12,715 bases of DNA from a virus (IMGVR_UViG_2565956711_000001); one strand, 5' to 3'; positions 1 to 12,715 are shown, counted from the first letter of the stretch. Notes: a model not told the origin generated them from the sequence alone. Numbers and translations are program-made.

Positions 1-297
1 TCACCATTCCTCACGCCTTGCCGGTGAATCAAACTCCTTTTCTACAAAATTTGCAGGGTTTGTATAAGTTGAAAGCGGTGCAGAACTGAGCGAAATCTCC
101 ACCCCTAAAATATTTAACACTTTGTATAGACGCTCAAAACTTGCTTTTGAAGGATTTGACTCAAGGCGAGCATAAGTCTGCTGGGTTATACCCAACATGG
201 CAGATAATTCTCTTTGAGTTAATCCTTTTGATTTACGAAAACCAATTAGAAGTGGACGTAACTGGCTAAGAAGTCTAACGGGAAAAATAGTATCCAT
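1..297 (-). CDS. HipB-like XRE-family helix-turn-helix regulator/antitoxin, 98 aa, complete (stop TGA = revcomp of 1-3)
   Basis: The XRE HTH core (GLTQRELSAMLGITQQTYARLESN) and the C-terminal ...EEW resemble E. coli HipB, which ends ...NLEW. The stop overlaps a possible GTG (GTGA) of a downstream gene lying off-window, as in hipBA. The sequence differs from K-12 HipB and the context does not match the K-12 hipBA-dif arrangement. Confidence 0.6.
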   Translation of the reverse strand: MDTIFPVRLLSQLRPLLIGFRKSKGLTQRELSAMLGITQQTYARLESNPSKASFERLYKVLNILGVEISLSSAPLSTYTNPANFVEKEFDSPARREEW

Positions 298-354
298 AAG
301 TAGGTGGCCATGTCGATTACTTCATAATAAATTCACTCCTCGTAAGAAACAGCC

Positions 355-393
355 TGTAAGGTGTCTTATTACTTTACAGCTTACAAGGTGTAA
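355..393. promoter_or_regulatory. Palindrome-rich putative operator/promoter region upstream of the HipB-like gene
   Basis: CTGTAA-N12-TTACAG (355-378) and the perfect palindrome CTTACA-AGG-TGTAAG (379-393) lie directly 5' of the minus-strand gene that starts at 297. XRE regulators are typically autoregulated through such sites. Confidence 0.3.
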
Positions 394-413
394 GGGTGAA
401 CTCGTTGTATTAA

Positions 414-608
414 CTAATACTGCTCAAATTTTAAAGGTTGCATCTCGCGCTGGCTGGGATTATATTTATTAAGGACTAGCATATAGTGGTGTACGCTGTT
501 ATCCTCTTTGTAATGAGGCTTATCAGTGTGTGAAGGGAGAGGGCGGACTCTGCTTTGCCCTCTCTCTTTCATGGACTTATTTAACTTTAAATGTTTTTTA
601 AAAGTCAT
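414..608 (-). CDS. Small basic ORF (64 aa) whose ATG overlaps the stop of the upstream 186-aa gene (ATGA); doubtful
   Basis: The ATGA overlap at 605-608 suggests translational coupling. The ORF contains a strong hairpin (537-564) and has no recognisable motifs. Confidence 0.15.
   Translation of the reverse strand: MTFKKHLKLNKSMKERGQSRVRPLPSHTDKPHYKEDNSVHHYMLVLNKYNPSQREMQPLKFEQY
537..564. terminator. GC-rich hairpin GAGAGGGC-N12-GCCCTCTC, possible bidirectional terminator
   Basis: An 8-bp perfect stem read directly. On the plus strand it is followed by TCTCTTTC. It lies about 40 bp downstream of the 605..1165 gene on the minus strand, where the tail is less U-rich. Confidence 0.3.
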
Positions 609-1165
609 TGCCTTATTGCAATGGTTTTATTAAAAATCCCAATCAATGTGTTTATTTTTTCATTTATCTTAATTTGCTTTTTCTCTTGCTCGAGAGAAAG
701 TTTTCTGAATTCATTTTCCCTGCTCGGCACGGCAATTATCAACTCTTCATAAATCTCCTTTGCTCCTGATACTTTTTCCAACTCGCTGCTGTATTTTTCG
801 ATAAGAGTTCTTATTTGAATATTTACATTTCTGTATTCATGACTGGTAGCACTTAAAACAAGTTGACTGGAATTTTTTTTGGGTGCCTCAATTAACTCTA
901 CGCTTTTCTTTACGACATTGAATTCAGATGTGACTGAGTATACATATTGATACGCGCCTGATTTTCTGACTTTACTCAATAATCCTTTTCTAACTAAACA
1001 CTGAATTTGGTTATAAGCAAAAGCTTTTGCCTTAAAATAACTTTTCGGAAGTGAAAATCGCTCGATAAGAATTTGAGCCACATCGTTACTGGTGAAGTTA
1101 TCTTTAGCAATATAGATTATTGCGGAAAATATGTACGACTCAGCGTTGGATACTCGACTATTCAT
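605..1165 (-). CDS. Hypothetical protein, 186 aa; N-terminal winged-helix DNA-binding fold (BlaI/CopY/PadR-like) plus C-terminal coiled coil; strongly AT-rich gene
   Basis: The motif ...YNQIQCLVRKGLLSKVRKSGAYQYVYSV... resembles the recognition helix and wing (LVKKGLL...EGRAYVY) of BlaI/MecI/CopY-type repressors. The C-terminal 80 aa are K/E-rich heptad-like. GC is about 30 percent against about 47-50 percent for its neighbours. Confidence 0.55.
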   Translation of the reverse strand: MNSRVSNAESYIFSAIIYIAKDNFTSNDVAQILIERFSLPKSYFKAKAFAYNQIQCLVRKGLLSKVRKSGAYQYVYSVTSEFNVVKKSVELIEAPKKNSSQLVLSATSHEYRNVNIQIRTLIEKYSSELEKVSGAKEIYEELIIAVPSRENEFRKLSLEQEKKQIKINEKINTLIGIFNKTIAIRQ

Positions 1166-1187
1166 ATGACTAAAACAAGGCAGTTAA

Positions 1188-1202
1188 CTTAGGATTGCTA
1201 AG
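1188..1202. promoter_or_regulatory. Operator-like palindrome 1, CTTAG-GATTG-CTAAG
   Basis: A perfect 5-bp inverted repeat with a 5-bp spacer, in the divergent intergenic region between the 605..1165 (-) and 1263..1595 (+) genes. Confidence 0.4.
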
Positions 1203-1221
1203 TATACAACAATGGCAGATA

Positions 1222-1236
1222 CTTAGACAATCTAAG
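1222..1236. promoter_or_regulatory. Operator-like palindrome 2, CTTAG-ACAAT-CTAAG
   Basis: A second copy of the same CTTAG-N5-CTAAG motif, 34 bp centre-to-centre from the first. This is a typical tandem-operator layout for a dimeric HTH repressor. Confidence 0.4.
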
Positions 1237-1262
1237 CATTCGAGGCCAATGAAGATGAATCA

Positions 1263-1595
1263 GTGTCTGAAAAAAATCCGATACCAGAAAGACTTAAGGA
1301 AGCGAGAAGCAGGGCGGGTTTATCACAGCGCTCATTGGGCCTCCTTGTTGGGTTTGATCCCGCTTCGGCTAGCAGTCGTATGAATCATTATGAGAAAGGG
1401 CGCCATGTCCCCGATATTGATACGCTTCGACGGATGGCGGCAGAGTTAAACGTGCCGTTGAACTACTTTTTTTGTGATGATCAGACCACAGCTGAACTTG
1501 CATTACTCATATCCCGGATGACAGAGGAAGAGCGAAGTAATCTTATCGAAGCACTCAAAAGGCATCCAGGCGAAAAGCATGCTGACAAAAAATGA
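1263..1595 (+). CDS. XRE/Cro-CI-family HTH transcriptional regulator, 110 aa (GTG start)
   Basis: LKEARSRAGLSQRSLGLLVGF...MNHYEKGRHVPDIDTLRRMAAELNVPLNYFF is a canonical XRE HTH followed by a short C-terminal extension. It is divergent from the wHTH gene, with the twin operators in between. Confidence 0.7.
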   Translation: MSEKNPIPERLKEARSRAGLSQRSLGLLVGFDPASASSRMNHYEKGRHVPDIDTLRRMAAELNVPLNYFFCDDQTTAELALLISRMTEEERSNLIEALKRHPGEKHADKK

Positions 1596-1799: not shown

Positions 1800-2234
1800 T
1801 TATGACGACTTATGTAGTTCCCGAATCATATGGTTGGCCAACAGGCTTTCCACCGGTATAACCGAATTGATTTTTACCGCTTTGACAATTTCTATCAACG
1901 AAAGGGTATTTTGCGCTAATTGGTCTCGCAATTCACTTACTTCAGCCTGCAACTGCTGGTTTCTGGCCAGTAAAGCCTGACGGGTTTTGCGGTTGACGTA
2001 TTGCTGTTTTTCTTTTGGGCGTAGATTCAATGGGCCAAGTTGCTGGTCAACATAGGCAGCAATTAGGCGTTTACGCTCTAGGCTGCTCAGCGTACTTAAA
2101 CCACCGTTAACGATACCTTTTGCCTTGAGCCTAATATGCAGGGCCTTGGCGGAAATAGGGGACTTGTCAAAGCCTTCAACCAGCATCAGTTGTAATTCGT
2201 GCTCAATCAGTGTGTTCAGTTCCTTGCCGCGCAT
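1800..2234 (-). CDS. Small accessory protein (144 aa from ATG 2234..2232; 145 aa if TTG 2237..2235), last gene of the recombinase operon; possible HTH plus coiled coil (TnpC/excisionase-like role?)
   Basis: Its ATG shares the A of the TGA stop of the 788-aa gene (TGATG), indicating translational coupling. The protein has Q/L/E-rich heptads (ARNQQLQAEVSELRDQLAQN) and no catalytic motifs. Confidence 0.6.
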   Translation of the reverse strand: MRGKELNTLIEHELQLMLVEGFDKSPISAKALHIRLKAKGIVNGGLSTLSSLERKRLIAAYVDQQLGPLNLRPKEKQQYVNRKTRQALLARNQQLQAEVSELRDQLAQNTLSLIEIVKAVKINSVIPVESLLANHMIRELHKSS

Positions 2235-4600
2235 CAATCATTCTCCTGCATCAATTGTTGGTATTCAAGTGCAAAAAGCTGGGCCAGTGTACGGACTTTG
2301 CCCTCGGTGATTACTCCACCAGACAACACACTCTCAGCAGCAACCAGTTGTTGAGTCTTGGCACGACGATGCCATTGTGCTTGTATTGCCTCGAGTTGCT
2401 GTAACCGTCGTTCGATGTCGGCCAGTCTGGTCTGGTAATCAGGCTGATGTTGAGTAAGTTGGGTCAACTTCGAATGTGCTTGCTGTAAAGCCTGTTTTTT
2501 GGCAATCAGATTTGGTAGCTCATCTATCCGGCCTGTCAGCGTGAAATGTTCACAAAAGGCAGCACTCTGGCATTTCAGTCGATAAGGACATCCCCAGAGG
2601 TTAACTTCCCGCATACAGGAGCCAAATTTCAGCGGATACAGCACGGCATGTCTTGCCACCATGTCAGAGGCTTGCTCTGGTCCTTCTGCGTCGCGGATTT
2701 CTTCAAAGGCGGCAGCAACATCTTCAAAGAGGCCGTTAGCAAATGACGCCTCGACAAACCTGGCTACATCATCCCGATCGTCAAAAGTATGCAGGTTGGC
2801 TTTGATGGTATTGTCCAAAGTCATGTGTTCCGTGACCGCCAGTTGGCCGGTCCGTTTGACGATATCCAGTGGCGTAGCAATGGAGGACGAAGAGGGCGAG
2901 ACAGTTAGTGCTGTCGAAATCGGCTGCAAGGGCACCAACGAGGCGGCTTTTCGCCGTTCTGCAAGCGCCAGATGTTGATAATGCTGATTCTGCGTGATGT
3001 CCACTCGACCCATCAACATTGCCTGTAAGTGGTCAGAGATATCCGCAATAGCAAGAAAGGTATTGATGTTGTGCCGGGGAATGTGGGTACGCATCCGCGT
3101 CGAGGTGCCATCCTCCTCCAGTAATTGATATTTGCTGAATACTGATCCATCAGGCTCAACGTTGCCTAAGAATTTATTCATAAGTGTGTTAGTGAAGGGT
3201 ATCGGTGTAGCCAGCAAAGCCAGTGTGCGCTTTAATGCCAGCGAACCCTTCTCGTGTAGAAATAGCAGATCCTCGTAGTTAACTTGGTAGCGTTTGCCAT
3301 TTTCCATCCAGGCGTGTGTACAGGGTTCGTTGGCATTCGCCAGACCAAATTCGGTCTTAATGTAATGATTGAGAGCAGTCTTGGAATAATAGATAGATTT
3401 GCTGTTTTTCGGGCCTGGTATTTCTTGAACGGGCAGCACACCTCTTTTGCTAAGGGCTTTGGATGTTTTGTCCCGTTGTCCTGCCCGGCCCCGAAAACTT
3501 GAGGTAGTTTGGGTGATGTACTTCACCACATCGTCCAGTTCGACTCGTTCACCGGGCATGTTGCTGATGGCCTGTGGCAGGTAATCAGCAAAAGATTTTG
3601 CCCGTAGATAGGTAAGATGGCTGCGTATTGGTGCGGTCAACATTTTAACGGTACTGAATATACTCTCGACCAGCGGTACTGCCAGCGGTTCTACCCAATG
3701 CGTTCGCTCCCCAGCACCTTTGACACCAACATAACGGATACCAAGAAAATAATCGGGTAATCCCTTGTCCTGAAATCGTTTGCAGATTGCCGGATCATCA
3801 ATCTGGCGTTTAAACAGGGCATCCTGTCTGAGATTAAACGCTTCAATGGAGCGAAAGCCGGTAATAACCAATAACAACAGGCAATTTAACGCGATTTTCT
3901 CAGCATCACTTTCCACCCGCTGGATTAATGCAACTATGTTCAGAAATCCGCGAATGGTAATCAACGCATCTTCACCATCGGTAGTGGTATCAGACAGCTT
4001 GGCCTGCTGTTTCAGCGCCATGGTTTCCCGGGCTTTGCGGGTCAAGTTGGTTTTGTTGGTATACTTCACATCAGAGTTGTATTGCAGTTTAACCAACGTA
4101 AATGTGAAGTGATTGACCAATTTTTGAAGGCTAACGCACCGCCCTTTATAGTTAGCTGTATTGGGGTCACTAGGAGATGAAACGCTACTGAGAAGATCCA
4201 TCGCTCGTTGAATGACAACTGTGCTCAGGTAAGATGGATGGGTCTGTCCTGTCTCATAAAGCATCGCATGGTACCATCGTTTCAGAATCATCAAAGTTGC
4301 CTTTGCCACCGCTGGCGACATACTCCTATTTCCCTGTCGGTAAACCACTACCAGCATAGCTTTCATGAACTGACTATATTCTTTGTCGATGGGCAGATGT
4401 TCTACAATACCTTTGAATCTGTTCATCTCATCAAAACGTAATGTATTTCTGCCGTTCCCTCGCAACCATCCACTTCCCTGGTTACCACTTACCCAGATAT
4501 GATCATTCCATGTTTGGGCAAAATCAGCAGACAGGTGCTGTTCGAACCATTTTTTTTGCTCTTCAATAAAAGCCTGAAAATGCTCAAAGTGATTTTTCAT
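2234..4600 (-). CDS. Large tyrosine recombinase (788 aa), third gene of a recombinase trio; C-terminal Cys cluster and long coiled-coil tail
   Basis: Catalytic signatures are present: box I Arg (LVITGFRSIEAF), HxxR (HIPRHNINTFLA) and the C-terminal LMGRVDITQNQHYQH with the tyrosine nucleophile. A Cys cluster follows (SCMREVNLWGCPYRLKCQSAAFCEHF), then Q/L-rich coiled coil. An AGGTGA Shine-Dalgarno sits 6 nt upstream of the ATG at 4600. Confidence 0.8.
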   Translation of the reverse strand: MKNHFEHFQAFIEEQKKWFEQHLSADFAQTWNDHIWVSGNQGSGWLRGNGRNTLRFDEMNRFKGIVEHLPIDKEYSQFMKAMLVVVYRQGNRSMSPAVAKATLMILKRWYHAMLYETGQTHPSYLSTVVIQRAMDLLSSVSSPSDPNTANYKGRCVSLQKLVNHFTFTLVKLQYNSDVKYTNKTNLTRKARETMALKQQAKLSDTTTDGEDALITIRGFLNIVALIQRVESDAEKIALNCLLLLVITGFRSIEAFNLRQDALFKRQIDDPAICKRFQDKGLPDYFLGIRYVGVKGAGERTHWVEPLAVPLVESIFSTVKMLTAPIRSHLTYLRAKSFADYLPQAISNMPGERVELDDVVKYITQTTSSFRGRAGQRDKTSKALSKRGVLPVQEIPGPKNSKSIYYSKTALNHYIKTEFGLANANEPCTHAWMENGKRYQVNYEDLLFLHEKGSLALKRTLALLATPIPFTNTLMNKFLGNVEPDGSVFSKYQLLEEDGTSTRMRTHIPRHNINTFLAIADISDHLQAMLMGRVDITQNQHYQHLALAERRKAASLVPLQPISTALTVSPSSSSIATPLDIVKRTGQLAVTEHMTLDNTIKANLHTFDDRDDVARFVEASFANGLFEDVAAAFEEIRDAEGPEQASDMVARHAVLYPLKFGSCMREVNLWGCPYRLKCQSAAFCEHFTLTGRIDELPNLIAKKQALQQAHSKLTQLTQHQPDYQTRLADIERRLQQLEAIQAQWHRRAKTQQLVAAESVLSGGVITEGKVRTLAQLFALEYQQLMQEND

Positions 4601-6149
4601 TGGACTTCACCTGTTCCTGATGAAAACGGCAGCGGGCGATAACAGACTCAATTTCAAACTGTGTGGTTTCATGGATTAAAATGAGCGGATTTCGGGAATT
4701 ACCTACACCGTCTGAAATAGCGATTAGTTCATCGACTTCTTTTTTGACGCATTCAAGTAGAGCCTGATGTTCACCATCCGTAAAAGGGCGATAATACAGA
4801 CAGCCGTAACAAGAACGCACTTCGCTGAAAGGGCATGTACTACTGTTCCTGGAGCAACCACCAATTTTATCATGCAACTCGTCACCAACGAGTCCCACCA
4901 CTGGATGGCCTTTCCAATGTGCTGAGTCGACCAGTTCCCCAGTGAGCATCATAGCCACCATATTTTGCCAAACGGGATTCGACCCAAGCGCTTTAGCACG
5001 GATCAAGGCCAACGCGGGAGTTGCCATAATGTAGTATTTAGCTACGGCAAGAGAGGTGTGCCCCAGTACATGTGCTATCTCTTCAGCGCTAGCACCTTGC
5101 ATCGCCAAAGAGTGCCCAACATTGTGGCGTAAATCAGTGGGTGTAATTGTGGGCAATGCAGCTTCGCCACATGCTACGGCGGCTTGATATTCAGGAGGAC
5201 AGAAATTTAGGATTGCCTGATTAATTGCCTGAGACACATAATGCGGAGCTGAAACGCTGAAATCGAATAGTTTATCTTCGGGGTTTTTCTTATATCTCAC
5301 GGTATAGTTCATAATTAACTCCCCAATTTCTGGGGGGATCGCCAGAAATAACCGCTCTGTCGTCACTCGTCTTTGTTTAGCATATGGTAAAAAAACACTG
5401 TATCGAATCAGACCAGATTCCTGATTTCGTGTATCGATACGAACATCTTTGACCGCCAGCCTAGCGAGTTGTACTGGGCGTGCACCCGTTACATAAGCCA
5501 ACCCAAGGATAGCTGCATTGCGCACTTCGCTGTGACTGAAACTTTTGCCATCGCGTAACAACGAAGCCATTTCAAACAGTCCATTGCAAATCATGTTTTT
5601 TTCAAGAGGGTCAAGAATATTATCGATTTCTTGGTAACCCCCCCAATGTTCGAGATACGGTCGAGGGACGAACTCAAGATCATCGTAATCTTCAAGATTG
5701 AAACCTGGGAATGTTTCAGCACAAAGTATTTTTAATCCGAATAACACGGAATAAAAAGTAGCATTATCAATATCCTCTTTTTCGATAAATAATCGGAGCG
5801 TACTAAGCGAAAACCCACCATGTTCTCGACAATATGAAATGATATTCCTCCAATCAAGGTGCAACGCTGGAAGTTTGGTTGGAAATCTCGTCGATGCATA
5901 TTTGAAACAGATATACTTGTTTAATTTATTTGAGATATAATCTTGATTGAAAACAAGATATCGCCGACTGCCTGAATAATCGAAAGTCCATTTATTTCCT
6001 TTGTTAACAATATATTTATCATCAAACTCCATTGCCGTTTTTAGATAAATTCGATCAGGAATATCGAGTTCAAAGATAGCCTTAGCTAAATCAGGAGGGT
6101 AAACTGAGTTCCCTTCGTCAGATTTTAATGCATTATCAAATGATGTCAT
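4584..6149 (-). CDS. Tyrosine recombinase (521 aa), second gene of the trio, with C-terminal Cys-rich extension
   Basis: VTGARPVQL (box I Arg), DLRHNVGHSLA (LRH motif) and VLGHTSLAVAKYYI (LGH...Y) are XerC-like catalytic motifs. The motif CSRNSSTCPFSEVRSCYGC follows the catalytic Tyr. The gene overlaps both neighbours (14 and 17 nt). Confidence 0.8.
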   Translation of the reverse strand: MTSFDNALKSDEGNSVYPPDLAKAIFELDIPDRIYLKTAMEFDDKYIVNKGNKWTFDYSGSRRYLVFNQDYISNKLNKYICFKYASTRFPTKLPALHLDWRNIISYCREHGGFSLSTLRLFIEKEDIDNATFYSVLFGLKILCAETFPGFNLEDYDDLEFVPRPYLEHWGGYQEIDNILDPLEKNMICNGLFEMASLLRDGKSFSHSEVRNAAILGLAYVTGARPVQLARLAVKDVRIDTRNQESGLIRYSVFLPYAKQRRVTTERLFLAIPPEIGELIMNYTVRYKKNPEDKLFDFSVSAPHYVSQAINQAILNFCPPEYQAAVACGEAALPTITPTDLRHNVGHSLAMQGASAEEIAHVLGHTSLAVAKYYIMATPALALIRAKALGSNPVWQNMVAMMLTGELVDSAHWKGHPVVGLVGDELHDKIGGCSRNSSTCPFSEVRSCYGCLYYRPFTDGEHQALLECVKKEVDELIAISDGVGNSRNPLILIHETTQFEIESVIARCRFHQEQVKSNEKSL

Positions 6150-7530
6150 CGTTATATCTATCCATTATAGTATCTAACGTATTATGTAGCGCTGCATTGT
6201 CTTGAATAATTCGTTGGACATTGGCAGCATTAGCCTGCTCAGACAGGAAACGTTTTGCATATAGATCAGGCATTTGACTTGTCGGACTCCATCCCCCCAT
6301 CAGTCGTAGTTCATCTTTAGCTTCTTCCATTATCCCTGAGAGGGAAGGGACTTCAGCAATAAAGTGTGTTTTATTTTGCTGGCTTTTCAAATATTTTAAA
6401 TGCCATATTTTTTGCAATGTCAAAAAGGCCCAAGTATGTCGGGTTGTATGCGGAGTCAATCGTTGCAACGAGTCAGAGTACAACGGTGATTTGTACTCTG
6501 GATATTGGTTAGTGAAGACCTGATCTATTTTCGAAAAAATAGAATGAACTGATGTGTAGGACAAAGGCTTCGCTGACTGTTGACTCGATGTAAAGATGAA
6601 ATCGTGTTTATCAGTTTTTGGTCGAAGCTTTGCTATATAAATGCTTAAAAAAATATAATCCTGCTTATCGAGCTCCAACACACGATTAGCCCATGCATTT
6701 TTGAGAGATGGCGCATTCTTTCTTGGTTCGTATGCCTCGTCGACAGTTGTCACAATCAAACTAAACTTATCACCTTTTAAATTAGGTTTAATTGAGCTGC
6801 ACTCTAACAACAATAGCTCACCTGTTCGTAAACCATAATTTAACAACAGACGAATAATCAAAAAATTGCGGAACTGAAGATGCCCGGAAGGGAAAGGATT
6901 TAGCGGGTTATGCTTTTGGGCAGAAGAGGGGGTTATTATTCCATACAGGCTGAGCACCATTGCCCCAGACAAACTCTGAAATCCTTGGCTGCTGTGACTA
7001 TGTTGCGAAAATTTGTTTGATGTAAGCGTTCGATAATTCTCCCGGCAAAGCTGTAAACGGGTGTGTAAACGCGAAGCCAAAAGTGATAATGCTTTGGGAG
7101 AGTCATCCCGGTATGCAGGTGATATGTAGGTGTTAATCAAAAAAGAAATGAAATGGATCACAGCACGAACTCTAACTGTATGAGTTAAGCTATTGGCTTT
7201 TGTGACTCTCGTTAAAGACAACACATTTGACTGGACGTTGTGGCCATTTTCTAGATACATCCAAAATGCGGGCATTTCACCGACAGCAATGTCTGGATTG
7301 TGGTCAGATGAATAGAAGCTGTAGCAAAACGAGACACCATACTTTTGCCTCCAGAATTCGTAAAAAAACTTCACAGATTGAAGTGAAGCTGACTGTGTGG
7401 ACAATGAGCGGAAAGCCAAATGGTCAATATGGTACCTAAGGGGATACAGCAACGGCAGAGAGGTTTCCAAGTCCATCAGGATCCATCGCCTTTTACGGCC
7501 TGAGATAACCAACTGCTTTAGTGAATACAC
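6136..7530 (-). CDS. Tyrosine recombinase (464 aa, GTG start), first gene of the trio (TnpA/RitA-like position)
   Basis: NYGLRTGELLLLE (box I), TPHTTRHTWA (HxxR) and LMGGWSPTSQMPDLYAKRF (Trp in place of the second His, as in Cre, then Tyr). A GAGG Shine-Dalgarno sits 8 nt upstream of GTG 7530..7528, and a GATAAT -10-like hexamer lies at 7546..7551 (minus). Confidence 0.8.
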   Translation of the reverse strand: MYSLKQLVISGRKRRWILMDLETSLPLLYPLRYHIDHLAFRSLSTQSASLQSVKFFYEFWRQKYGVSFCYSFYSSDHNPDIAVGEMPAFWMYLENGHNVQSNVLSLTRVTKANSLTHTVRVRAVIHFISFLINTYISPAYRDDSPKALSLLASRLHTRLQLCRENYRTLTSNKFSQHSHSSQGFQSLSGAMVLSLYGIITPSSAQKHNPLNPFPSGHLQFRNFLIIRLLLNYGLRTGELLLLECSSIKPNLKGDKFSLIVTTVDEAYEPRKNAPSLKNAWANRVLELDKQDYIFLSIYIAKLRPKTDKHDFIFTSSQQSAKPLSYTSVHSIFSKIDQVFTNQYPEYKSPLYSDSLQRLTPHTTRHTWAFLTLQKIWHLKYLKSQQNKTHFIAEVPSLSGIMEEAKDELRLMGGWSPTSQMPDLYAKRFLSEQANAANVQRIIQDNAALHNTLDTIMDRYNDDII

Positions 7531-7673
7531 AATATTTACCTCAAAATTATCATGGATATGAAGAGAATGTACTCTGTACCTAATGCAAGAAACGAGAGGG
7601 AGATCAGAAATCCTAACGTATTGATTTATCAGTTAGTGGGAGTGTCATATGAACTTATTTACCACAGTAGGTG

Positions 7674-7701
7674 ATTTAACATAATATACATTATGCGCAC
7701 C
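7674..7701 (-). other. dif: dif chromosome dimer resolution site (XerC/XerD), perfect 28-mer
   Basis: The plus strand reads ATTTAACATAATATACATTATGCGCACC. Its reverse complement, GGTGCGCATAA-TGTATA-TTATGTTAAAT, is identical to the E. coli/enterobacterial dif consensus. Confidence 0.9.
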
Positions 7702-7986
7702 AGTGCGCAGATACGCCAGAAATCAGCCTGTAACCATCACCACGGCATTAAACGGTCATCGCTGTTACGTTCTTTCGTCTTCGACCGTCAGCCATCCGTA
7801 TCGCTTCTGAATACGCCGGAATGAAAAACAGGCTTTGCAGTGCCGGGAATTATTATGGCTGACGCCATAATGCTGTTTATGTCCTCGCTTCGCTGCGGGG
7901 CTTCCGGCGCTAAGCGCCTCCCATGCCTGACGGCATAAAAACCGGATATGCCGCCACGTCACCGCATGATACGTCCGTCGCCACCA

Positions 7987-9249
7987 TCACCGCGCGCGCT
8001 CCTCGTGGGAACTCGGTGCGTGCGCGGCGCTGGCGCGCCTGACTTTTTTCGCCTGTAACACGACAAGAATATCCGTCTTGTTCTTCTCGTCAGATGAACT
8101 GGTGAGCCAGCCTTTTGGCAGAAAGCTGAACCCGGTATCGGCGTTTGTGACCTTCGATTCAGCCAGGCCACCCAGCAGAATAATATCCCCGTCAGCCGCT
8201 GATACCTCCGTATTCACCTCGCGCTTAATCAGCGTCGGGCTGTTATTCACGCCCGTATCCGTCTTCGCAAAGCTGGAAAGCTGCTGCTTAATCACAAGGT
8301 CAATATTGTCAGTCCGGATTTGCGGTTTCACGTCGAGGATAACGCCACTAGAGCGATATTCAATCGACTGGATCGGCCTGTTGTCGGCGTAGCTCACCTG
8401 ACCCAGCACCGGAACCTCGTTACCGACTGAAAACGTGGCAGATGCGCCATCCTTCACCCTGAGCCGCGGGGAACTGACGACATGAAAACGACTGTCCGTC
8501 CTGAAAAGCTCATACAGCGCATCAAGAGAGCCTGTATTCACCCGGATAAAGTTATCAAAACCGCCAGACGCGCCAATCTGTATATTCAGCTTGCCGGAAA
8601 GCAGCTTCGCCGCCAGTGCCAGCCCGGAACCGTTACGCTCACTGGTCTGAACCTCAAACACGTAAGCTGCGACAATCACTTCTTCAGAGGCAGTATCAAT
8701 CAGCGGTAAAAGCGTCTGCAACCGCTTAATCTCTGACTTCCGGCCATAATAAACCAGCACATCCCCGGTACGGTTCATAAAGTCCGATGCCGTACCCGCT
8801 ACGGCCGCTTCTGGCGATATCTGCCCGGACGGTAACGAGTTACGCTGACTGTTAAACTGCCCGGTAAACTGTCCGGCCAGAATGTCAGACAGATACGCCA
8901 CGGAACGGAAGCGAGGCCGATAAACAAAGGTCTCCTGCGGCGGCACATACACTTTCGGCGTGAACGGCGCCACGTAGTCAATGCCCTGTTTGTTATAAAT
9001 CGCAATGTTCATATTGCCGAGATAGCGCTTAATAAATGCCCGTTCATCGATATCCGGCGTGATACGGAACGTCACCACCTTATCGGATTTGGCAAGCTCC
9101 GGGTCAAGCATAAACGGCTTATCGAACACCTGAACGTAAATCATGTTCAGCGCCTGCGGCAGCGGAACAGCGTTGAGCTCCAGACTGACGCCCTTCGCCA
9201 TAACCAGCCCCGGAACCAGTAAAAAAAGTAAACCTGTTATCAGCTTCAT
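7987..9249 (-). CDS. Filamentous-phage pIV-like outer-membrane secretin (420 aa)
   Basis: An N-terminal signal peptide (MKLITGLLFLLVPGLVMA) and the C-terminal secretin motif ...LLGGLAESKVTNADTGFSFLPKGWL...ILVVLQAKKV parallel M13 pIV (...LLLGGLTDYKN...GVPFLSKIPLIG...LYVLVKATIV). The size matches pIV (426 aa). The start is coupled to pI by an ATGA overlap. Confidence 0.85.
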   Translation of the reverse strand: MKLITGLLFLLVPGLVMAKGVSLELNAVPLPQALNMIYVQVFDKPFMLDPELAKSDKVVTFRITPDIDERAFIKRYLGNMNIAIYNKQGIDYVAPFTPKVYVPPQETFVYRPRFRSVAYLSDILAGQFTGQFNSQRNSLPSGQISPEAAVAGTASDFMNRTGDVLVYYGRKSEIKRLQTLLPLIDTASEEVIVAAYVFEVQTSERNGSGLALAAKLLSGKLNIQIGASGGFDNFIRVNTGSLDALYELFRTDSRFHVVSSPRLRVKDGASATFSVGNEVPVLGQVSYADNRPIQSIEYRSSGVILDVKPQIRTDNIDLVIKQQLSSFAKTDTGVNNSPTLIKREVNTEVSAADGDIILLGGLAESKVTNADTGFSFLPKGWLTSSSDEKNKTDILVVLQAKKVRRASAAHAPSSHEERAR

Positions 9250-10280
9250 CGTATCGCCCCTGAATAAACCGTCACCGTTTCGCCGTCGATTTCACCCGTC
9301 ATCATCATGCCGTCAAAGCTGAACTGCGAAGCCGGCTCTATACGCAATCTGCCTGACGTGTCTGCAACAACAACCCATGCCTGACCATCGCGTTTAAGCC
9401 GTCCGGCAAGTCGCCATTTGTCCGACACAACGGGCTTAGCTGGCGCGGCAGGTACAAAAGACGCTGAATTATTTGCGGCGGGTAAATCTTTAGTCTGCTG
9501 TTCAGGCTCTGAATTACCGTTTGACGTGAAAAACCAGAACAGATAAAAAATGGCAATTACCGCCAGAATCAGTAACCCGACAGCTTTAAACCACAACATT
9601 TTAGAACTGAAAATATTCTGACGTTTATCGGTGACAAGTTCCCTTCCCTGCCCGTTCTCATGGGATTTATATAGGGGGAATATCGCCTTGTCATATTTAT
9701 TCTGATAACTGTTCGTCAGATTCGACTTAAACAGTTTGATACCCGTAAATACGTCCACACGGTAGCGGTTATGCAGACCCAGCGCCACATGCTTACTCAT
9801 GCGATACGTTGTTTCCACCCGGTCTTTAATGAATCGCGGAAGGTTGGCAACAGACTGATTCATAACCACTAAATCACAGGTTACGCCCGTTTTTTCATCG
9901 GCAAAATGGCGATGTTCTGCAATGAAAGAGCGATGATTTGCAGGAATCCCTTTATCGTTCTCCCATATGCGCCATGCTTCATCAATACAGATTAAATCCC
10001 CCGGACGGCAGAACGTATCATCCGCAATGCCTGAATCCGTTTTGTAGGGAAAGAAATTATCGTTCTGAACGTCTTCATTCTGAACAAGTAAAATTTCACC
10101 AAGTGATTCCCTGTCTGCCTTTTTAATATCAACGCAGTAATCATAAATACTTTGCGTGGCAAGGCCGTAAATATTACTGACAATGCGACGCCCAGCGATA
10201 CAGGCGGGAATAATGACGCTTGCCACCACTTCGTAAGATTTACCGCTTCCGGGAATGCCCACATACGCAGAAATAGCCAT
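9246..10280 (-). CDS. Filamentous-phage pI / Zot-family assembly ATPase (344 aa)
   Basis: An N-terminal Walker A (GIPGSGKS), a single mid-protein transmembrane segment (AVGLLILAVIAIFYLFWFF), and a position between the gVI and gIV homologues. Confidence 0.85.
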   Translation of the reverse strand: MAISAYVGIPGSGKSYEVVASVIIPACIAGRRIVSNIYGLATQSIYDYCVDIKKADRESLGEILLVQNEDVQNDNFFPYKTDSGIADDTFCRPGDLICIDEAWRIWENDKGIPANHRSFIAEHRHFADEKTGVTCDLVVMNQSVANLPRFIKDRVETTYRMSKHVALGLHNRYRVDVFTGIKLFKSNLTNSYQNKYDKAIFPLYKSHENGQGRELVTDKRQNIFSSKMLWFKAVGLLILAVIAIFYLFWFFTSNGNSEPEQQTKDLPAANNSASFVPAAPAKPVVSDKWRLAGRLKRDGQAWVVVADTSGRLRIEPASQFSFDGMMMTGEIDGETVTVYSGAIR

Positions 10281-10283
10281 AAA

Positions 10284-10571
10284 TTAACCAATCAAAGGAA
10301 TGCGACGAATAATAAAGCGCGTTAACAATGCTGAAAACATCAGTTTAATCCCTTCCGTGACCATAAACAGATTCACGAAATACCATACGCTATCAGGTAG
10401 TGAGGAAAACAACCCGGCAATATCAACAGATTTTGGCAACAGTGACGCCAGAACCGGAACAAACGCCTGTACGACAAAGTACAGGCCAAAAAACAGAATA
10501 AATTTGACAACCACCGTTCGCAGCACAAAACCCAGCGCCACGTTAAAGGCTGAAACCAGAATACCAAACAT
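10284..10571 (-). CDS. pVI-like minor coat protein (95 aa), hydrophobic
   Basis: A small multi-TM protein located between the pIII-like and pI-like genes, exactly as gVI is in Ff phages. It has no motif of its own beyond hydrophobicity and size. Confidence 0.6.
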   Translation of the reverse strand: MFGILVSAFNVALGFVLRTVVVKFILFFGLYFVVQAFVPVLASLLPKSVDIAGLFSSLPDSVWYFVNLFMVTEGIKLMFSALLTRFIIRRIPLIG

Positions 10572-10581
10572 AACGCCTCCG

Positions 10582-12465
10582 TCACGCAGTCAGAATGATA
10601 CGCAGCGAAATAATGCCCCAGATAAGCAGGAATACCGCTTTCAGAAGTGGCCTGATTTTTTCCAGAAGCTCGCAGTGAGAATCAATGGAATATTTATTGT
10701 CCCAGAGTTCGAACGACCATACCGGACACTGAACATCCTTCGATGAAATACTCAGGTTTTTAATGTCCGGCATTAATTCTGTAATTGGCTTGAGAATTTC
10801 CTCACCTGTAGGCGGTTTTTCAAGTTCCGGCGATTTAATGCCGGGGTCTTCGCCTAAATCAACAGAAGTATCGGTATCTGTGCCTGTACCAGGGTGTACA
10901 CCTGTATCCGTTCCCGCACCGGGTCTGGCATTAACCCACGACTGAGGAACGACAACCGGACTATAAAGCAAGCCCTTATCAAGTTTTACGCCAACAGCAT
11001 TAGCCGCAGCCGTCAGTTCAGCCGCCGTAAAAGGTTTATCAAGCGGTATCCCCTGATATCCTTCCTGAACAACAGTCTGACCTGCAAGGCCATTAATAAG
11101 ATTAACCAGCGCAGCCGGGTTTAACTGTTCCTCCGGCTTGAAATCTATATTATCAATAACCTCGCCATTAATTACCTGAGGTAAATTTGATGTATCAAAT
11201 TCTGTATTAAAAAATATCTGGTCTTTAACATCCTGAACATCATTCGTCGTTTTATACACGGCCTTCTCAGGGTGGCAAATACTTTTCCACTGCGTTTTGG
11301 GATTATCAGCCGTACTGCCCGGCGCAGGTACTTTCTCGCTTTTACATAAATCCCATGAGTTTTCAAGCGTAACCGTTGTTGTTCCAACAGATAAAACCAC
11401 AGTTACAATCGATGAATATCCACCAAAATAAGGATTCGGCTTTTCATACTGAAAGTCTTTAACGGAAACCGAATAAACCTTAAAATTTCTTGGCATCCTG
11501 ATATGTAAGTTATTGTCGTCAGACGCCTCATGATAAGTCACATTGGAATGAGAATAACCATTAATCGACTTATAAAGCGCAATCATTACCGGATTATCAC
11601 TGACAAGTACAGCATCGCCCTTTGCATCCCTGATATCAGTCGAATAAGGATATTTAGTACCCTTAACTGACACACGATATACATCATTCGGTAATGGCTG
11701 GCTTATCGGCGGTGGTGCATCAATATTGTAATAGGTTGGCGCAATCTGAACAGGTTTAACCTGATGATTATAAGGGCTTATCGAGTCCTGAATATTCTTC
11801 GCAGAAAAGCCAGTAGCATCAGAGGGCAAATAAACAGCAACAGGGCTTTTAGGTGAAGGTGCAACAGAAGAAGTAACAGTAGCGCCATTGGACAAATTAA
11901 GTAAATAAGTTCCATCATCCTGTTTTATTCCACTTGTAATATATTCAACAGCTTTTGCGCCCTGCTTTAAAGCAAGGTCAGCAACGGAAATAACACCCGC
12001 AGCCTGCCCCAGCAATCCCCATGTTGTCTGTCCGGCAGCCATCATATTACTGCCAAAACTTGAAATACCCGTGGATATCGAATCGTCAATTGTATGCTTC
12101 GCAAGGCCATAAGCAGCCGCGAAAACTGACGTTCCGGTGCAAAGCTGAGGATTACCCACTTTCTCGCCACACATGCGGATTGAATCAAAAACGTCAGGAC
12201 GTTCGCGTATAACCTCCGCAGCGACAGCGATACCCGCGCCCATACCGAGAGAACTGGCACCCGTTGCGAATACACGCCCCGCAGATTGAGAAACAACCTG
12301 AGCTTCACGGGTTTCAACCATTTGCTGAATTACACGTCCAAATCCGTCTGCTGTTACTGCATCAGCATGTACACCGGATGAAACCAGTAAAGACAATATA
12401 GTAATACCTAACTTTCCAGACCCTGAATGACCGCCCAGGCGCATAAAAGCCCCCATAAAAAACAC
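10582..12465 (-). CDS. pIII-like minor coat / host-adsorption protein (627 aa; true start may be Met8 at 12444)
   Basis: A signal-peptide-like N-terminus and Gly/Thr/Asp-rich flexible linkers (GAGTDTGVHPGTGTDTDTSVDLGEDPG) separate globular domains. A C-terminal membrane anchor (LLKAVFLLIWGIISLRIIL) is typical of pIII. The gene lies between the gVIII and gVI homologues. Confidence 0.7.
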   Translation of the reverse strand: MFFMGAFMRLGGHSGSGKLGITILSLLVSSGVHADAVTADGFGRVIQQMVETREAQVVSQSAGRVFATGASSLGMGAGIAVAAEVIRERPDVFDSIRMCGEKVGNPQLCTGTSVFAAAYGLAKHTIDDSISTGISSFGSNMMAAGQTTWGLLGQAAGVISVADLALKQGAKAVEYITSGIKQDDGTYLLNLSNGATVTSSVAPSPKSPVAVYLPSDATGFSAKNIQDSISPYNHQVKPVQIAPTYYNIDAPPPISQPLPNDVYRVSVKGTKYPYSTDIRDAKGDAVLVSDNPVMIALYKSINGYSHSNVTYHEASDDNNLHIRMPRNFKVYSVSVKDFQYEKPNPYFGGYSSIVTVVLSVGTTTVTLENSWDLCKSEKVPAPGSTADNPKTQWKSICHPEKAVYKTTNDVQDVKDQIFFNTEFDTSNLPQVINGEVIDNIDFKPEEQLNPAALVNLINGLAGQTVVQEGYQGIPLDKPFTAAELTAAANAVGVKLDKGLLYSPVVVPQSWVNARPGAGTDTGVHPGTGTDTDTSVDLGEDPGIKSPELEKPPTGEEILKPITELMPDIKNLSISSKDVQCPVWSFELWDNKYSIDSHCELLEKIRPLLKAVFLLIWGIISLRIILTA

Positions 12466-12498
12466 ATAAAATCAAAAAGATATTGAGCCATAAATATA

Positions 12499-12518
12499 AA
12501 GGGGCTGTTACGCCCCTT
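12499..12518 (-). terminator. Rho-independent terminator downstream of the major coat gene
   Basis: Stem AAGGGGC/GCCCCTT with a 6-nt loop. On the minus strand it is followed by a TTTATATTTAT run. This is the position of the strong post-gVIII terminator in Ff phages. Confidence 0.5.
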
Positions 12519-12529
12519 ACCTTTATGAA

Positions 12530-12715
12530 TTAAGCGCCACGAACCATACGCAAAATCCAGCGGACACCCGCAGAACCTGCATACAGAACAATAAGAGAAC
12601 CCGCTACCGCCATAATTCCGGTCAGAACGGAACCGAAATTAACGCTGTTAGTCAGTGGCGTAAGGTCAATACCTTTACCACCAACAACATCACCTTCAGC
12701 AGCAAATACGGCAGG
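12530..12715 (-). CDS. pVIII-like major coat protein, 3' part (start beyond right edge); no M-start ORF in the track because it is truncated
   Basis: Minus-frame translation gives ...PAVFA|AEGDVVGGKGIDLTPLTNSVNFGSVLTGIMAVAGSLIVLYAGSAGVRWILRMVRGA*. This shows a signal-peptidase site, an acidic N-terminus (compare M13 AEGDDP), a hydrophobic core and a basic C-terminus. That is the hallmark layout of inovirus major coat proteins. Confidence 0.75.
   Translation of the reverse strand, partial: PAVFAAEGDVVGGKGIDLTPLTNSVNFGSVLTGIMAVAGSLIVLYAGSAGVRWILRMVRGA

Follow-up and report, generated by a model that had tools for sequence, protein, structure and literature searches.

Organization of the locus

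The stretch of DNA considered here, IMGVR_UViG_2565956711_000001 (12,715 nt from a virus, referred to at its full length as the window), carries the genes of a filamentous phage on its right-hand side. The part from 7702 to 12715 covers, from the gIV end, two thirds of a single copy of an inovirus (Tubulavirales) prophage that is intact and 7,669 bp long. The sequences compared make it very probable that this prophage lies in tandem in the dif site of E. coli, encodes no recombinase and is integrated by host XerC in the style of CTX-phi, via a folded phage attachment site (attP). The original prediction, made from the window alone, had placed a morphogenesis block with the order gVIII-gIII-gVI-gI-gIV at 7987-12715, and all five genes were found there on the minus strand (Table 1; protein lengths in amino acids, aa).

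Table 1. Features of the prophage and its attachment locus, in window coordinates (ssDNA, single-stranded DNA; L015, part of the metagenome scaffold that contains the window)
Feature	Position	Strand	Basis
Chromosomal dif (28 bp)	7674..7701	minus	Exact 28/28 match to E. coli dif
Phage intergenic region, gIV to attP XerC arm	7702..7986	minus	Part of the 7,669-bp repeat unit
Multi-hairpin ssDNA element (119 nt)	7823..7941	minus	Conservation across replicons; four hairpins
gIV, putative outer-membrane secretin for virion extrusion (420 aa)	7987..9249	minus	PF00263 Secretin, E 2e-24; signal peptide
gI, Zot-family inner-membrane assembly ATPase (344 aa)	9246..10280	minus	PF05707 Zot, E 3e-24
gVI, minor coat / virion cap membrane protein (95 aa)	10284..10571	minus	PF10734 DUF2523, E 1.3e-12; phrog_974
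gIII, adsorption / minor coat protein (620 aa)	10582..12444	minus	gIII position, signal peptide, C-terminal anchor; phrog_3942, E 5e-194
Terminator-like GC hairpin and T run between gVIII and gIII	12499..12518	minus	Consensus scan
gVIII, major coat protein, C-terminal 61 of 82 aa, truncated by the window end	12530..12715	minus	Translation; phrog_2186
Rest of gVIII (82 aa); 89-aa membrane protein; 96-aa ssDNA-binding protein; 371-aa gII; two small divergent genes	Rightward of the window, on L015

The coat-protein layout, the Walker A motif of a Zot-like pI and the secretin character of pIV, all part of the same prediction, were borne out by translation and by the Pfam matches. The coat fragment runs from AVFA/AEGDVVGG, with an acidic N-terminus, through a hydrophobic core to a basic RWILRMVRGA tail; it matches phrog_2186 ('virion structural protein') with an E value of 6e-26, and the complete 82-aa gVIII is seen on identical contigs. 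In pI, the Walker A sequence GIPGSGKS occupies residues 8-15 and one transmembrane segment lies at 223-255, and the protein matches phrog_197 (E 8e-88). The PHROGs matches of the block proteins, with E values from 6e-26 to 1e-135, are all to inovirus families. The expected coupling overlaps were found at only one place, the ATGA at 9246-9249 in which the gI stop overlaps the gIV start; the other neighbours are separated by gaps of 3 nt (gVI-gI), 10 nt (gIII-gVI) and 85 nt (gVIII-gIII). The terminator-like hairpin between gVIII and gIII reads AAGGGGCGTAACAGCCCCTT then TATATTTATG, and a search of the window with Rfam at the gathering threshold returned no families.

The adsorption protein pIII comprises a signal peptide, about 500 aa of lineage-specific N-terminal sequence, a linker rich in Gly, Thr and Asp, and a conserved C-terminal domain whose membrane anchor spans residues 599-620. 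A GTG at 12465 would give an alternative form of 627 aa instead of the 620 aa read from the ATG; this form was discarded, as no such record exists and the annotated version begins seven codons later. Full-length homologues fall into only 19 clusters, the named ones being from E. coli, Salmonella and Enterobacter, and no Pfam family was matched. An AlphaFold model built from a 12-sequence alignment was poor (pLDDT 44, pTM 0.28), and a Foldseek search of this poor model against the PDB gave no match at E <= 0.001. As modelled, the receptor-binding region of pIII is without a recognisable fold.

Tandem structure and integration at dif

A metagenome scaffold of 48.8 kb (L014/L015; L numbers denote the loci compared) contains all 12,715 nt of the window at 100% identity. 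On this scaffold the element is a 7,669-bp unit present in two complete head-to-tail copies, followed by hipA-hipB, and E. coli G5 (98.7% identical) carries an equivalent tandem pair at dif. The replication half of the phage had been expected to the right of the assembly block. It is there on L015 as far as gII and a gV-like gene are concerned, but the expected gVII/gIX pair is not, since a single gene for an 89-aa membrane protein stands where the Ff phages carry gVII and gIX. The 371-aa gII product matches PF05155 (E 1.7e-24), PF05144 and phrog_702, and the 96-aa gV-like ssDNA-binding protein matches phrog_8473. All ten open reading frames (ORFs) of the unit are intact and assigned. A degraded remnant, recognisable by the absence of replication genes to the right, had been named as the main counter-reading, and the module is present. 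No recombinase is found among the ten assigned ORFs, which agrees with the earlier statement that the block contains no integrase; the recombinase genes across dif belong to another element, described below.

The 28/28 match to E. coli dif, with 0 such matches expected from shuffled sequences, reads GGTGCGCATAA-TGTATA-TTATGTTAAAT on the minus strand, the sense of the phage plus strand. The block had been said to abut dif; the exact site is present, but it lies 285 nt beyond the gIV stop. In every context examined, it is the end of the array nearest gIV that carries the reconstituted dif, and phage-free genomes align to the window only as far as 7700-7702. In more than six chromosomal flanks, the array has the structure chromosome-[A/G]GTGCGCATAA / TGTGTGACTCG-TTATGTTGAAAA...phage...GGTGCGCATAA / TGTGTGACTCG...phage...GGTGCGCATAA / TGTATA-TTATGTTAAAT-chromosome, in which spaced slashes mark the junctions. 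Each phage copy begins with TGTGTGACTCG-TTATGTTGAAAA-(GC stem-loop)-TCTTTAGCATAA-CGTCA-TTATGCGCATT, followed by the genes and GGTGCGCATAA, and then by either a further copy or TGTATA-TTATGTTAAAT-chromosome. In hosts whose XerC arm starts with A, that A survives at the distal junction only, and the dif on the gIV side has the G of the phage. The first three bases of the phage central region, TGT, are common to dif. These two observations locate the crossover to the interval from that A to the central region, which is the position of XerC cleavage. The junctions thus fit an XerC-side exchange with the crossover at the XerC arm of dif, and host XerCD integration, which had been proposed as the parsimonious mechanism, is consistent with both the junction sequences and the structure of attP.

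In attP, a GC hairpin lies between two dif-like sites in inverted orientation. For its plus strand, a forked hairpin is predicted (-36.6 kcal/mol, z -7.3), and this fold is kept in eight variants: the present phage, the A37 replicon, three sites in E. coli UTAK-3, LD39-1, CUS-1 and Dulem virus 52, a lemur-saliva inovirus. Across these variants, 11 of the 34 pairs show compensatory changes. The internal junction of the tandem on the source contig retains an intact attP.

Two side observations concern these sites. RefSeq contains a 43-aa hypothetical protein (WP_262162528.1, from G5; a 132-nt ORF) that corresponds to window 7693-7824 on the plus strand and has its ATG inside dif; it is probably a spurious annotation. 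In E. coli UTAK-3 (L022 15800-16400), the tandem copies of a different dif inovirus are separated by a stretch with two extra forked-hairpin sites. Their stem sequence differs, and their central region, GACATATGCCG, shows no match to dif; they could be decayed copies of attP or sites of a satellite element.

The genes and junctions suggest the following life cycle. The virion would be built from the pVIII coat, with pIII and pVI forming the cap and adsorption end, and would be exported by the inner-membrane ATPase pI through pIV, the phage's own outer-membrane secretin. For replication, gII would act as the rolling-circle initiator and the 96-aa protein would coat the ssDNA. The packaged plus strand is predicted to adopt the forked hairpin, with the XerC arm (GGTGCGCATAA) and an XerD-like arm exposed around a central region that bulges out. 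XerC of the host would then swap one strand between this hairpin and dif, just 3' of the XerC arm, and replication would complete the integration; the same CTX-phage mechanism has already been proposed for Ypf/CUS-1. Because an intact dif is regenerated beside gIV, further copies can enter, which would lead to tandem arrays. From such a tandem prophage, gII presumably generates the new plus strands. We infer from the sequence that integration depends on Xer and uses ssDNA as its substrate, that tandem copies serve for phage production and that virions are released.

The intergenic region and its shared element

Within the intergenic region, the stretch 7823-7941 is shared with replicons other than this phage. 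A Klebsiella plasmid carries an unrelated, Ff/IKe-like prophage in which the sequence directly downstream of gIV is 92% identical to 7823-7941, and IncN plasmids have two copies with 84-85% identity in their leading (anti-restriction) region. The plasmid copies lie upstream of leading-region genes with the element on the transferred strand, which is the same polarity as in the packaged phage strand. Four hairpins are kept among these sequences; out of 31 predicted pairs, two that belong to different hairpins show compensatory changes. The support for a structured element comes from this comparison with relatives, since single-sequence folding gives none: the 139-nt core reached a z of only -1.6. 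As a separate observation, the element also occurs in the leading regions of other conjugative plasmids besides IncN, with two copies each.

Signals of the ssi type can stand in for the M13 minus-strand origin. Because such signals replace the M13 origin and 7823-7941 is shared with plasmid leading regions, we infer that this stretch may serve as a minus-strand origin or as an ssi or ssDNA-promoter signal. One report describes plasmid ssi/Frpo signals as priming or being transcribed on the entering ssDNA (PMC11541004, citing Masai and Arai 1997, Nomura 1991). The element is likely to be an ssi or ssDNA-promoter module that has been exchanged between phages and plasmids. If so, filamentous phages and conjugative plasmids would trade modules for single-strand initiation or for ssDNA promoters.

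Distribution

The phage is rare in E. coli and spread across Enterobacterales. Most of it is present in five of 5,426 complete E. coli genomes. The exact pI occurs on 102 contigs under a multispecies label (Enterobacteriaceae/Enterobacterales), one source of which names Klebsiella pneumoniae, and proteins at least 90% identical are named in Salmonella, Citrobacter, Enterobacter and Serratia. A scan of genome contigs for pI found only two distant loci, in Arsenophonus (59%) and Providencia (58%), and is little informative on host range. At the nucleotide level, the unit is 99.9-100% identical in different chromosomal flanks. Near-identity in different flanks, in conjunction with a multispecies pI, indicates recent horizontal spread and argues for a recently mobile and probably functional phage rather than a remnant. 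With proteins named in several genera, it also looks like an active element of broad host range. The longest contig of pI-carrying blocks is only 5-10 kb in 97 of 207 cases and one record measures 7,672 bp, as would be expected of a collapsed repeat or of a free replicative form.

A further copy of the phage, 97.9% identical, was seen on a 272-kb E. coli plasmid (NZ_CP173491.1, 184107-188888), which suggests integration into a plasmid-borne dif-like site.

Other elements at dif

To the left of dif, four overlapping genes on the minus strand (window 1800-7530) encode proteins of 464, 521, 788 and 145 aa. The 464- and 521-aa proteins match the tyrosine recombinase family PF00589, and a Pfam search with the 788-aa recombinase-like protein gave no match. 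A gap of 144 nt separates the 5' end of this island from the dif XerD arm. The island was found in 75 of the 5,426 complete E. coli genomes, with the match always ending at dif, and strain EC09 carries a 100%-identical island beside a dif that contains no phage. An identical phage is in turn present at dif without the island recombinases (L003-L013, L017). Its layout corresponds to the ginABCD operon of GInt islands (PMC5385486), in contrast to that of SE elements (PMC10214605). An assignment of the recombinase trio to an SE element (intA-tfp-intB-srap) was considered and rejected, as the gene order and the Pfam-negative 788-aa third protein better fit ginABCD. From its sequence, the four-gene island is best described as a separate, ginABCD-like GInt island and not as part of the phage.

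The island and its surroundings gave several side observations. The G5 variant of the GInt has a different ginA at the same spot. Past ginD, the cargo in window 1-1595 comprises two helix-turn-helix genes, one of them HipB-like (1-297), and a 186-aa unknown protein. Just outside the window (L015 19338-21263) lies a Gabija-like pair of a UvrD-like helicase and an AAA_15/21 ATPase, and the cargo in G5 (L001 1-4040) is a CBASS-like set of nucleotidyltransferase, ThiF and JAB genes with an exonuclease. The GInt adjacent to dif thus seems to carry variable anti-phage defence genes. The outer flank of the XerD arm differs from the first base in six contexts (window 7660-7673, L024, L005, L003, L011, L001), several of them of E. 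coli type, and several different islands may have inserted exactly at the edge of this arm.

Insertion sequences (ISs) were also found at the site. In EC09 (L027 10700-13560), whose GInt and dif are identical to those of the window, an ISNCY-family transposase and a Shedu nuclease directly adjoin the XerC arm; one half of an attP-like hairpin comes next, and then hipA. On the source contig (L014 3770-3990), the outermost phage copy joins hipA via a stem of the EC09 type and an IS end, and the crossover there lies within a 25-28-nt dif-like half site common to the phage attP and the IS-carried remnant. A crossover in this shared half site implies that the IS and Shedu gave way to the phage array, so the arrival of the phage may have removed a defence gene. 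In G5 (L001 27338-27470), ISKpn21 lies directly at the hybrid site. Window 7558-7685, which consists of the last 116 nt of the GInt-side flank and the first 12 nt of dif, is 99% identical to DNA on 190-200-kb E. coli plasmids, where the copy (L032 5001-5128) adjoins IS3 and ISNCY transposases; this may be chromosomal DNA carried by a dif-targeting IS.

These observations can be drawn together, tentatively and with less than even confidence, into a picture of dif as a contested landing pad for three unrelated elements (GInt, ISNCY-Shedu and the phage), on which the phage array replaced the IS and Shedu and the phage borrows ssi or ssDNA-promoter modules from plasmids. They are, together with the element shared between phage and plasmids, the most novel leads of this analysis.

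Discussion

The strongest competitor of single-stranded integration is integration of the double-stranded replicative form via a conventional dif-like attP, reversibly and in the manner of VGJ phages. The junction sequences would be the same under either route. The top site of attP has a perfect XerC arm, 9 of the 11 positions of an XerD arm, and the TGT homology to the dif central region, as a conventional substrate would. Its arms, however, are 11 nt apart instead of 6-8 nt, and, judging from the established spacing of dif, cer and psi, a double-stranded Xer site would not tolerate such a spacer. Furthermore, a second, inverted dif-like site is kept 40-50 nt away, and its pairing is maintained by compensatory changes across diverged phages. 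This conserved pairing counts against the double-stranded route because it has no role in a double-stranded site. Double-stranded integration is therefore considered rather unlikely. A defective, domesticated remnant, for instance a secretin/Zot cassette retained without virions, is less probable again. The window holds part of one copy only, and one attP arm is absent at the outer end of the array in the source contig. The ten intact ORFs, the invariable occurrence as complete tandem units and the intact internal attP speak against decay, as do the near-identity across flanks, the multispecies pI, the short pI contigs with their 7,672-bp record, and a relative that is a free 7.4-kb circle.

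Two further explanations remain. The prophage might have been integrated by the adjacent recombinases of 464, 521 and 788 aa as one integrase-bearing element, given that two of them match PF00589 and that they lie 144 nt from dif. This is highly improbable: these genes are outside the repeat unit, identical phages occupy dif in their absence, the island is far more frequent than the phage (75 against 5 genomes), the EC09 island has no phage beside it, and its layout is that of ginABCD. A reading of the secretin and the Zot-like ATPase as a bacterial type II secretion or pilus system is hardly credible. It draws on the RefSeq name of the secretin, 'type II secretion system protein GspD', and on the PDB, in which the top sequence matches are GspD secretins and f1 pIV (7ofh) is found with an E value of 1e-12. 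The PHROGs match, however, is to phrog_1012, 'assembly (protein IV of M13)', with an E value of 1e-135, and the length of 420 aa is that of a phage pIV and not of a 650-aa GspD. No other type II secretion or pilus genes are present, and the neighbours are the coat, pIII, pVI, gII and gV genes in canonical inovirus order, so the phage partners on which the original prediction had made its reading depend are in place. The GspD name in RefSeq is a mislabelling of a phage secretin.

Several points weigh against a tandem, CTX-style prophage and were taken into account. The attP, gII, gV and the second copy lie outside the window and were seen only via the identical overlapping contig and relatives. 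The outermost copy on the source contig lacks the attP top arm, through a rearrangement with an IS-borne remnant. The junctions do not discriminate between single- and double-stranded entry, as described above, and the whole 289-nt intergenic fold is no more structured than shuffled sequences (z -0.94). A prophage integrated by host XerC through its folded attP nevertheless remains the strongly favoured explanation. At the level of sequence, this is a clear case of an Enterobacterales filamentous phage, beyond the CUS-1/Ypf pair, that exploits Xer in the CTX style. The kind is already known, namely a dif-integrating CTX-type inovirus of broad CUS-1/Ypf architecture; the lineage is distinct, and current understanding is not overturned.

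Comparison with known filamentous phages

A megablast search with the phage part against 50,697 phage records returned nothing. A known phage of the same layout is CUS-1 of E. coli O18:K1:H7, which was taken from the UTI89 genome, where it is located next to dif and hipBA. Both phages have the order gII-gV-small membrane protein-gVIII-gIII-gVI-gI-gIV and their own secretin, both take the same orientation at dif relative to hipBA with an intact dif beside gIV, and their attP sequences are nearly identical (in CUS-1, GGTGCGCATAA-TGTACGACTCG-TTATGTTGAAAA-stem-TCTTTAGCATAA-CGTCA-TTGTGCGAACC). The assignment to a CUS-1/Ypf type in the original prediction accordingly holds for order, orientation and attP. 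It does not extend to the same phage, since the proteins are 48-62% identical (tblastn against UTI89: pVIII 62%, pVI 57%, pIV 56%, pI 48%) and the replication module differs, with a marginal gII similarity (27% over 149 aa) and none detected for gV. Only the C-terminal third of the CUS-1 PuvA/pIII aligns, at 32-33%, and no nucleotide-level match was obtained between the two phages. The regulators also differ, and on the way from gIV to dif CUS-1 carries about 870 bp of accessory ORFs, the present phage its 285-nt intergenic region with the ssi-like element. CUS-1 and Ypf-phi, the latter from Yersinia pestis, are 99% identical over 7.1 kb. By these sequence comparisons, the present phage is a sister lineage of CUS-1/Ypf-phi outside that species. 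For Ypf-phi, Derbise and Carniel described inverted XerC/XerD sites, tandem copies at dif and a dif restored at the 3' end (PMC4266046).

The integration strategy resembles that of CTX-phi of Vibrio cholerae, the model of the CTX-type IMEX (Xer-dependent integrative element), which likewise has no integrase and carries inverted dif-like sites that form a forked hairpin with a bulged central region. According to work of Val et al. from 2005, the attP of CTX-phi is reportedly a folded plus-strand ssDNA that undergoes XerC-side exchange, regenerates dif and gives rise to tandem prophages. CTX-phi is without a secretin of its own and uses EpsD of its host. It also carries ctxAB, and its host and dif sequence are different; the match of pI to phrog_1041 ('CTXphi Zot-like toxin') is weak (E 3.5e-8).

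The block had also been called Ff-like. The Ff phages (M13/f1/fd, genus Inovirus) and IKe (Lineavirus) share the gVIII-gIII-gVI-gI-gIV order, the gI/gIV coupling and the terminator after gVIII with the present phage, as well as a coat starting with AEGD, a pI with a Walker A motif and one transmembrane segment, and a secretin pIV of about 420 aa. They differ in being non-integrating and without a dif-like site. Similarity is limited to pIV, which is 28.5% identical to that of M13 and 29.5% to that of IKe, and the other proteins gave no tblastn match to M13 or IKe at E <= 0.01. The likeness to Ff is therefore one of architecture only, with homology detectable in pIV.

The UP-phi viruses are integrated at dif in tandem, measure about 7.6 kb and occur in E. 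coli, Salmonella, Klebsiella and Citrobacter; they also carry h1/h2 genes, and the structural genes of UP-phi901 are about 70% identical to those of IKe/I2-2 at the amino-acid level (PMC7307601). The present phage agrees with them in dif, tandem arrangement and size but has no IKe-like structural proteins, which sets it apart from UP-phi901 as described, so that membership in this group is very unlikely. The UTAK-3 locus L022 was likewise considered as UP-phi and rejected, as its structural genes are not IKe-like.

By pI, the best matches in the phage collection are Dulem virus 52 (52%) and Inovirus D_HF5_61 (48%). Dulem virus 52 has the same gene order, a pIV of 52% identity and a forked-hairpin attP, but its dif type differs (ATTTCGCATAA arm), and neither gII nor gV gave a tblastn match to it at E <= 0.01. 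A circular replicon of E. coli A37 (7,439 bp) is much closer, with gII at 89%, gV at 80%, pIV at 91%, pI at 68% and a shared and intact attP. In all three relatives, pIII, the coat and the regulators differ from those of the present phage, and other E. coli dif inoviruses combine modules differently. These comparisons reveal the forked-hairpin attP as a conserved and exchangeable module common to otherwise diverged E. coli inoviruses, which share it while they swap replication, adsorption and intergenic modules.

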